From contig CASEEU010000022.1 of NCBI GenBank assembly GCA_949287075.1, positions 32,010 to 96,009 of the forward strand: a DNA stretch of 64,000 bases. Direction: 5' to 3'. Below, in pieces: positions 59,811-60,036 of this stretch. Numbering within the stretch: position 1 is the first letter of the stretch; the number at the start of each line of letters is the position of its first letter. Made by a program: the position numbers and the translations under genes. The notes below the pieces were generated by a model that saw only the letters and a program-made list of their open reading frames with translations, was not told the DNA's origin and did not search any database. This DNA is from an uncultured Eubacteriales bacterium (GTDB taxonomy: Bacteria > Bacillota > Clostridia > TANB77 > CAG-508).

Positions 59811-60036
59811 TTTCAGTATTTTTCAACAGGGGGGTGGTGTTATTTATTATTTTTGAATGATTTCCTCGGCTTGTTTCATAGATTATAAATTCTAAGCTTT
59901 TAATAAGCGAGCCTCTCGCTGCTCGCGCTTCCTCACTTATTAAAAACTAAGAATTTATACATCTATTCCACGGCACATTCGTCAATACATTCAAAAATAA
60001 TAAATAACACCACCCCCCTGTTGAAAAATACTGAAA
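59811..60036 (+). repeat. Palindromic element C: 49-nt perfect terminal inverted repeats and a nested 24-nt stem. It shares the conserved core cgagcctctcgctgctcgcgcttcctca and the conserved flanks with element A
   Basis: tttcagtatttttcaacaggggggtggtgttatttattatttttgaatg pairs with its exact reverse complement at 59988-60036. Inner stem tataaattctaagcttttaataag / cttattaaaaactaagaatttata. Core identical to A except for 2 nt. Confidence 0.85.

Follow-up and report, generated by a model that had tools for sequence, protein, structure and literature searches.

Much is known of the small palindromic repeats of Proteobacteria, among them the REP/REPIN, ERIC and Correia elements, and of those of pneumococci. 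The read-through stems of Correia elements are known RNase III substrates. Integron attC sites are recognised by structure over sequence, with variable stems, conserved extrahelical bases and unpaired spacers, and an asymmetry in the strand that is folded. A 2024 review of MITEs leaves Clostridia unmentioned.

The CREE or nemis elements of Neisseria are characterized in one account as units of ~100-160 bp, non-coding and intergenic, without a known transposase (PMC2649163). In MITEs the target duplications fade with age (PMC10969869). Inverted repeats are also shaped by template switching, which according to three accounts homogenises their arms, inverts their spacers, and creates and maintains hairpins (PMC8604942, PMC8794818, PMC7202029).

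We describe element C, a long hairpin found in the window (the whole 64-kb stretch of DNA analysed). It is one copy of an apparently undescribed family of small non-coding hairpin repeats from low-GC uncultured gut Clostridia.

Element C and its flanking signals

The four long palindromes of the window have arm pairs of 50 nt (100%), 40 nt (93%), 36 nt (97%) and 34 nt (100%). The first of these is element C, which has the longest perfect arm pair, as a sequence-only reading of this DNA had claimed. That reading also reported a G6/C6 tract in the arms, which is present, and a perfect repeat, which stands; its 49-nt arms starting at 59811 were off by one base in both length and start (Table 1). 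An inverted-repeat search gives arms of 50 nt each, 100% complementary, with 128 nt between them, and element C measures 228 nt in all.

Table 1. Coordinates of element C, of its flanking signals and of element A in the window
Feature	Coordinates	Strand	Remarks
Element A, second family copy of the window	2753..2960	+	Arms of 36 nt, complementary at 97%; flanked by rodA and a dusB-like gene
lepB terminator-like hairpin	59784..59809	+	GATAGA-GATTT-TCTATC + T7; outside element C; short, AT-rich; between lepB stop and element
Left arm of element C	59810..59859	.	50 nt; carries G6 tract; perfect complement of right arm
Internal loop, 5′ side	59860..59883	+	Begins ATTTCCTCGGCTTG; carries ATTTCCTCGG; family motif TYCTCGGCT
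Inner stem, 5′ strand	59884..59911	+	Conserved TTCTAAG with A.A mismatch
Apical loop	59912..59931	+	20 nt, CCTCTCGCTGCTCGCGCTTC; GC-rich island within AT-rich DNA
Inner stem, 3′ strand	59932..59959	+	Conserved bulged C
Internal loop, 3′ side	59960..59987	+	Ends TTCCACGGCACATTCGTCAATA; family motif CACATTCG; CACATTCGTCA at 59974-59984
Right arm of element C	59988..60037	.	50 nt
holB promoter-like site	60054..60082	+	TTGAAA-17-TATAAT; outside element C

Between the arms lies a nested inner inverted repeat, its two 28-nt strands matching at 89% and closing the apical loop. As a single strand, element C folds at -113 kcal/mol (+ strand) or -127.5 kcal/mol (- strand); its shuffled versions average ~-36 and ~-44 kcal/mol, respectively (z = -20.7), and 0 of 200 shuffles folds as stably on either strand. 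No TA duplication, and no other evident target-site duplication, flanks the element. The core holds no conserved open reading frame; a small one was considered and rejected, the ATG at the core edge being missing from many family copies.

Upstream of element C is a Peptidase_S26 (lepB-like) gene and downstream a DNA_pol3_delta2 (holB-like) gene. The earlier suggestion that element C is probably not the lepB terminator is borne out: the terminator-like hairpin of lepB precedes it and the promoter-like site of holB follows it, and therefore it serves as neither for its neighbours. The lepB hairpin was missed by a consensus terminator scan because it has fewer than three G-C pairs; relatives retain its counterpart, hairpin and T-run alike, even at the element-less site L061/L062. 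The holB promoter region is likewise conserved among relatives with and without the element. No T-run, as expected of an intrinsic terminator, lies directly 3′ of the element C stem on either strand, and the cores of elements C and A contain no promoter-like or terminator-like site. Both arms of element C hold weak inward TCAACA-16-TATTAT sites that other subfamilies do not conserve. Given those unconserved sites and a core devoid of signals, a promoter or terminator role was rejected. The right arm of element A contributes a -35-like TTTACA to a hybrid promoter-like site.

A family of hairpin repeats

Within the window a profile search recognises elements A and C as the only family members. 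Beyond element C, the family comprises element A and ~45 other copies, which come from the MAGs and metagenome contigs of Clostridia with 23-30% GC. A loop-motif scan of one genome per species yielded 18 true copies in seven uncultured MAGs, with 1-4 copies per MAG; all seven are AT-rich (26-30% GC) and belong to Clostridia / Eubacteriales / Bacillota. High-GC genomes that matched the loop motif were rejected as chance matches. A relaxed loop pattern applied to metagenome contigs added 25 true copies. The family is present in many genomes, each with one to at least 10 copies.

Element C is not a described Rfam family: the whole window gives 0 matches at the gathering threshold. Under relaxed thresholds the only matches are to plant miRNA precursors; they are of a generic long-hairpin kind and score 37-42 bits, where the gathering scores are 195-245. 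Two patterns run against IMG/VR matched unrelated DNA by chance and found no true member, and blastn against plasmid and phage collections found no match. An origin in a phage, plasmid or virus was rejected, the IMG/VR, phage and plasmid records being without true members.

Family elements are roughly 130-290 bp long, with arms of 30-50 nt in all members. The copies are built alike: long arms enclose a conserved, asymmetric internal loop (TYCTCGGCT / CACATTCG) and then an inner stem, in which an A.A mismatch is conserved and one base bulges, and the apical loop usually reads CTCTCGCT..TCGCGCTTCCTCA. The invariance of the apical loop is partly by construction because this loop was the search key, and variants of it occur in L044, L054, L064 and L108. 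The internal loop lies outside the search key: TCCTCGG is invariant in 18 of 18 copies (alignment A2), CACATTCG is nearly invariant across the same 18, and the 5′ motif is also kept in subfamilies A and E.

At least four subtypes can be told apart, among them a C-type ending in GTTTCAGTATTTTT, an A-type ending in GTTACAATTCACAG and an E-type of ~290 nt total length with outer ends GTTACTAGATAATGG. A third subtype occurs at L059, and L108 has another non-canonical apical module. The arm ends of element C agree with the C-type family consensus. The sequence-only reading had the conserved core of element C differing from that of element A at two positions. The kinship of the two stands; the count is true of three shared motifs alone, namely ATTYCCTCGG, CGAGCCTCTCGCTGC(A)TCGCGCTTCCTCA (with one 1-nt indel) and CACATTCGTCA, and not of the intervening stems, which differ. 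The arms and inner stem differ between A and C, and the spacing from TTCCTCGG to CACATTCG is 104 nt in both.

Neighbours of the copies are housekeeping genes, and the genome-locus copies examined sit in spacers containing gene starts. Copies occur in tandem (in both orientations), divergent and convergent spacers, with no cis rule; an avoidance of convergent spacers was suggested by the first 13 loci and refuted by L085 and L099. Some copies lie 10-29 nt from the flanking genes and are therefore co-transcribed there. Several sets of copies occupy one locus across species (L004/L010/L028; L005/L006/L017; L001/L031/L036). Such retention would fit a host function too.

Conserved structure and strand asymmetry

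In the 18-copy alignment standard pairs make up 93.5% of cells, a share that falls to 41-50% once the partners are shifted by 1-3 columns. Two-sided changes are found in 42 of 68 pairs, a number that 0 of 500 shuffles reaches, and the covariation score is 0.385, compared with 0.04-0.09 for slid partners. The stems are kept through changes on both sides. In the inner-stem helix 16 of 30 pairs covary, and all subtypes, and even the copy L108 with its different apical module, have the A.A mismatch (TTCTAAG / CTAAGAA) and the bulged base. At pair 76-104 of alignment A5, 19 copies have U.G and eight have U-A.

The arms are almost pure Watson-Crick, their rare transition mismatches showing no strand bias (50 versus 53 wobble-type cells). 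The wobble-compatible mismatches of the inner stem favour the minus strand by 26 to 4, and in 42 of 42 distinct copies the core is more stable on the minus strand, on average by 8 kcal/mol with RNA parameters or 3.3 with DNA parameters. The asymmetry hints, from sequence comparison, that one single strand may be the one that matters; the strand counts are a hint and not a proof because they share ancestry and are not independent events. A strand-specific single-stranded form, at which the minus-strand preference hints, is something that a purely duplex-DNA parasite would not need.

Two more specific readings of the conserved loops were rejected. TTCCTC occurs three times on the plus strand and GGA three times on the minus strand, as in a CsrA-type GGA decoy or a Shine-Dalgarno or anti-Shine-Dalgarno mimic; this was dropped because the left motif of subfamily E is TTTCTC, with no GGA. 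A K-turn in the apical internal loop was set aside by inspection, the sequence being a misfit to the consensus of G.A / A.G pairs and a 3-nt bulge.

Arm complementarity and core inversion

Element C is present in all nine intact same-species contigs (HolB 100% identical), always in one orientation; a tenth contig, L050, may be chimeric. The nine form two haplotypes, with either G at 59830 and C at 60017 or A and T. In the stem, 59830 lies opposite 60017 (59830 + 60017 = 59810 + 60037), and one contig, L043, is an imperfect intermediate.

A relative with 92% HolB identity (L053/L054) also has a copy. Its arms are 74-75% identical to those of element C and its core 87%; divergence at 4-fold sites of lepB/holB is 31-40%, close to that of the arms. 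The diverged arms of the relative still match each other, differing by one substitution and a 2-nt indel near the outer end. A palindromic insertion of ~190 nt, nested in this copy, has destroyed the left motif, and arm complementarity is therefore independent of an intact core.

The sequence-only reading had offered two ways to account for so perfect a repeat, very recent formation or active maintenance under selection. Very recent formation is not supported, given the copies in all nine intact contigs and in the 92% relative, with ~25% arm divergence. Active maintenance is the better half, though selection for a perfect stem is not required, mutational homogenisation of the arms being the simplest form of maintenance. 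Drift at a neutral rate, paired changes within a species and no excess of G.U pairs together favour copying between the arms and speak against selection acting step by step. We infer from these sequence patterns that template switching at replication is the best fit for both arm homogenisation and spacer inversion.

The core inverts between strains. It is reverse-complemented within identical flanks in L030 versus L037, it is flipped in L081 versus L097 (both complete, from one sample), and in two of 10 E-type copies (L089 and L099) it is flipped relative to the non-palindromic outer segments. For element C itself the flipped isomer at lepB-holB was found 0 times in JGI metagenome contigs, a search that had no positive control and in which consensus assemblies hide minor forms. 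Perfect arms, one-step paired double substitutions and spacer inversion are the products of quasipalindrome template-switch mutagenesis as set out in three accounts (PMC8604942, PMC8794818, PMC7202029), and all three patterns are present here. Unlike an element class, this is a mutational process; it covers the maintenance of the arms and not the origin, spread or core conservation of the family.

The family also suffers hairpin-associated deletions. At the A locus four alleles occur within the species, among contigs with 100% identical RodA: the full element; L108, with the same arms and internal-loop motifs and a different apical module; a 130-nt mini-element (L101/L106) with different co-varying arms, which has lost its inner hairpin between ATTCT direct repeats; and a near-complete deletion (L102), in which 23 nt survive from the right arm. 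The hairpin-deletion and near-complete deletion alleles show the long palindromes of the family to be prone to structural instability, in line with the earlier expectation. Presence/absence and slippage polymorphism, which the sequence-only reading had proposed looking for, is seen in both the lepB-holB spacers and the A-locus contig alleles.

Site occupancy and mobility

The family gains and loses intergenic sites as lineages evolve, and in this it behaves as mobile DNA. Ordered by HolB identity to the window, the lepB-holB spacer holds a C-type copy (100%), a C-type copy with the nested insertion (92%), 292 nt of unrelated sequence (88%), 20 nt only (86%), a copy of the third subtype (82%), an empty site of 132 nt with terminator and promoter (79%, L061/L062) or an A-type copy (74%). 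The element is thus not ubiquitous among relatives, in which the locus is patchily occupied, and it has no Rfam match as a known RNA; the outcome that would have refuted the sequence-only reading is not seen.

Subfamily E is known from 10 or more distinct loci of related metagenomes, with an average identity of 94% from arm through core to arm and of 39% in the flanks. The reading of the arms as inverted copies of a local target was rejected because E copies have the same arms at unrelated sites. Possible flanking duplications of 7-8 bp accompany two of ~7 E copies, ATTAAAAT on both sides of L099 (8/8) and AAAATTT at L089 (7), where the AT-rich flanks make chance likely; the remaining E copies show none.

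Many family matches lie at contig ends. In L063 a breakpoint falls inside a copy and lepB is inverted, and this contig is seen in three samples. A breakpoint inside a copy is also seen in L050, whose left half belongs to another copy and whose right half is element C; the core common to both may be where assembly joined them into a chimera.

No transposase, recombinase or autonomous parent adjoins the copies examined, and in the loci collected no terminal sequence flanks genes. There is no RAYT-like reading frame in the window or beside any A/C copy. The only RAYT-like Y1 gene seen is that of a relative (L065:8130-8884), flanked by the motif of palindrome family D and not of A/C; a RAYT link to the A/C family was rejected on this ground for the loci covered.

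Comparison with known systems

The family falls within none of the named families compared with it here: it differs in sequence, host clade and termini, and its conservation pattern is inverted, the loops being constant and the arms variable. In the way it works it comes closest to Correia elements, as an inverted repeat with a conserved core, and to REPINs, as vertically persisting hairpins.

Like CREE as described in one source, it has inverted repeats around a conserved core, possible promoter hexamers at the ends and hairpins in read-through transcripts (PMC2649163). Unlike CREE, it shows no sequence similarity to them and belongs to a different phylum; its arms are 36-50 bp and subfamily-specific, in contrast to the conserved 26-bp repeats of Correia elements; the A/C copies show neither a TA target duplication nor an identified IHF site; and the conserved parts of A/C are unpaired loops within a nested double hairpin. 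The likeness to CREE is thus one of analogy.

REPINs are hairpin-forming, non-autonomous, mostly vertically inherited, long-lived at orthologous loci, constant in their hairpin as they evolve and of low to moderate copy number by the accounts drawn on here (PMC3116915, bioRxiv), and the A/C family shares these traits. REPINs measure ~100 nt, and in them the REP arms are conserved while the loop varies; A/C elements reverse this, with conserved loops and variable arms. Unlike in REPIN/RAYT systems, no RAYT lies in the window.

With MITEs such as QMITE2, RUP and bcr1 the family shares AT-rich, intergenic, non-coding sequence, terminal inverted repeats and stable stem-loop transcripts (PMC10969869). 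MITE-like, too, are the length below ~500 bp, the dispersed copies with unrelated flanks, the occupied versus empty sites, and the near-identical, burst-like copies of subfamily E. In contrast to MITEs, no parent insertion sequence was found in the loci collected, the termini are unconserved across subfamilies, and target duplications are convincing in one or two copies only.

The likeness to attC sites, in variable stems, conserved unpaired features and strand asymmetry, is by analogy alone. Element C ends in GTTTCAG / CTGAAAC, a misfit to GTTRRRY / RYYYAAC. Further differences from attC are the absence of cassette arrays and of a nearby integrase, the housekeeping neighbours, and the different size and nested architecture.

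The dispersed family across many genomes, its patchy locus occupancy and the inversion of its core were all three absent from the sequence-only reading.

Origin and role of element C

We consider it probable that element C is a non-autonomous dispersed hairpin repeat of the MITE/Correia/REPIN kind, that template switching homogenises its arms and flips its core, and that it is a passenger at lepB-holB. Copies would spread by means of a putative trans-acting enzyme, whose probable recognition determinants are the parts of the folded single strand that stay unpaired and conserved, namely the A.A mismatch, the bulge and the internal loop (TYCTCGGCT / CACATTCG), and probably not the ends, which differ between subfamilies. 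A change in one arm would be copied to the other at replication, by intramolecular template switching or arm-arm gene conversion, and the same process would occasionally invert the spacer. At lepB-holB the element would simply ride between terminator and promoter. Read-through of it would give a long double-stranded RNA stem, by analogy a likely RNase III substrate. Against this explanation, the ends (GTTTCAGTATTTTT, GTTACAATTCACAG, GTTACTAGATAATGG) vary and the centre is constant, the reverse of a classical MITE, and most genomes have a low copy number. Also against it are the lack of a transposase or parent element in the loci collected, target duplications that are indistinct for most copies and absent from element C, the copies retained at one locus across species and the strand asymmetry of the core.

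An unlikely alternative is a family of functional structured RNAs made from the minus strand, acting either in cis within mRNAs or as an sRNA that RNase III would release, with loops that would bind protein or RNA and a long stem that would be a processing or stability module. Covariation is strong in both stems, yet the arms are almost pure Watson-Crick without strand bias and stay complementary even around the disrupted core of L053/L054. Unpaired motifs, mismatch and bulge are all conserved, as such an RNA would have it, in elements that have no Rfam match and no conserved promoter or intrinsic terminator on either side. The stabler minus-strand core (42/42) and the inner-stem wobble (26 to 4) would suit a minus-strand transcript, but the asymmetry fits folded ssDNA equally well and comes partly from shared ancestry and strand G-richness. 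Some copies hold the same locus across species, and those 10-29 nt from genes must be co-transcribed; against this, orientation to neighbours is arbitrary and flips between orthologous loci, the locus is empty or otherwise occupied in close relatives, and deletion alleles occur naturally.

A programmed inverton, in which the arms would be recombination sites and a flip of the 128-nt core would alter the expression of a neighbour gene, is very improbable. Inverted repeats do surround a short segment, but their sequences are unconserved between copies; arms that vary in this way and drift about neutrally are therefore poor targets for a site-specific recombinase, and no recombinase gene is adjacent at any locus examined. 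Both core orientations are found at orthologous loci in three independent cases, from different strains; spacer inversion is, however, a known by-product of template switching in the account of PMC8604942, all ten same-species contigs have one orientation at lepB-holB, and the JGI metagenome contigs, searched with no positive control, gave no flipped C isomer. The examined copies do sit in spacers with gene starts, yet the core is without promoter or terminator and the holB promoter lies outside the element.

The origin of element C as a one-off local palindrome from a recent inverted duplication of flanking DNA, without relatives or function, is suggested by its perfect arms and by 12 nt of the right arm (CTGTTGAAAAAT at 60018) that recur 33 nt downstream at 60051, in the holB -35 region, and has practically no chance of being right: it is refuted by more than 40 copies elsewhere with the same architecture, by arm ends that fit the C-type consensus and by the copy in common with the 92%-identity relative.

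Implications

For annotation, these loci should be labelled repeat elements, not terminators or RNA genes. In MAGs of common gut Clostridia the copies mark hotspots at which assemblies break, become chimeric or are rearranged, as in L050, L063 and the matches at contig ends.

The conserved unpaired motifs point to a putative binding partner. We think it possible, if unlikely, that the identity of the family lies in the folded minus strand, with its asymmetric internal loop, A.A mismatch, bulge and GC-rich apical module, bound as ssDNA or RNA by such a protein, with the arms free to drift. If so, this would be a new hairpin-targeting mobile system in Bacillota, with the logic of attC or REPINs and without integrase or RAYT; alternatively, it would be a domesticated RNA with a 40-50-bp perfect stem processed by RNase III.

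As a dispersed hairpin repeat, the family offers a clean natural case in which arms drift neutrally yet remain complementary, a paired change segregates within a species and spacers invert repeatedly. Drift with complementarity, a segregating paired change and inversion are together what template switching predicts.

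Rearrangement at repeat copies

A copy of the repeat family of elements A and C lies at a breakpoint in L063. lepB is inverted in L063 relative to L064, with the same HolB protein encoded in both, and its upstream neighbour in L063 differs, being a pseudouridine synthase gene. At the L063 junction the A-type element is reduced to its right half. L063, whose contig is present in three samples, carries a chromosomal rearrangement with a breakpoint within the A-type repeat.

A chimeric element in L050 joins the right half of element C to a left half identical to a family copy of the L009 type, which adjoins an rsmE-like gene. 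Either copies have recombined, or the assembly has joined two of them wrongly at their shared core. The element also shows that the window's species has at least three copies.

Element C carries one copy of a 12-nt direct repeat, CTGTTGAAAAAT, whose other copy lies in the adjacent promoter-like site. Compared with the C-type consensus, the arm copy has 2 nt inserted, a change mirrored in the left arm. This pattern may have arisen by conversion from the neighbouring holB promoter-like site, or by chance.

E-type copies occur twice in L087, oriented alike, on either side of an sbcC-like (AAA_23) and sbcD-like (Metallophos) gene pair. The sbcC/sbcD pair encodes a nuclease that cleaves DNA hairpins; the bracketing is probably a coincidence.

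Other genes in the window

The predicted membrane protein of 226 aa had no Pfam match. Contigs of the same species show its gene to be hypervariable: variable columns reach 96 per 250 nt there, versus 1-7 elsewhere. In two contigs the protein has 142 aa. A RAYT-like gene occupies its place in a relative with 79% identity. The MinE homologue has 200 aa, about twice the usual length, with a lysine/glutamate-rich, low-complexity C-terminal extension of ~100 aa.

Other palindrome families

The core of palindrome D recurs twice in the relative with 79% HolB identity (L065), the second time directly 5′ of a gene for a RAYT-like Y1 transposase, the kind paired with REP/REPIN hairpins. This position makes D a candidate REP-like sequence that, in this clade, may be partnered by a RAYT. 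No RAYT-like ORF is present in the window.

Palindrome B likewise forms a multi-genome family, with copies 82-90% identical, arms included. B resembles A and C in general architecture (long arms, asymmetric internal loop, inner stem and GC-rich apical loop), but its core is unrelated to theirs.

Coordinates of features in the window and in related loci
Feature	Location	Detail
MinE homologue gene	window 1018-1620	
Palindrome B	window 14052-14233	other copies L055/L056:277-435, L001:6702-6884
Palindrome D	window 56222-56328	core ATTTTGGGGACGGAGC
CTGTTGAAAAAT copy 1	window 60018-60029	outer end of C right arm
CTGTTGAAAAAT copy 2	window 60051-60062	-35 region of holB promoter-like site
Predicted membrane protein gene	window 62115-62960	between ferredoxin and thiamine pyrophosphokinase genes
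D core, first recurrence	L065:2296-2330	3′ of ftsW
D core, second recurrence	L065:8066-8100	
RAYT-like Y1 transposase gene	L065:8130-8884	PF01797; protein motifs PRRERRLNISPYYHVLVQG...DNHVHLL
Chimeric element	L050:2416-2832	
sbcC-like/sbcD-like pair with E-type copies	L087:3854-7169	
Palindromic element of another kind, ~190 nt	L053/L054:1078-1272	inside C-type copy of close relative

The nested element of L053/L054 has the sequence GACAAATCTTAACGCTTCTTCGAGAACTT...AAGTTCTCGCGAAGCGATATTTGTC and is preceded by a hairpin, GTGGTATAGGAAAA...TTTTCCTATACCAC. Several unrelated hairpin repeat families are present in these genomes, inserting into one another.
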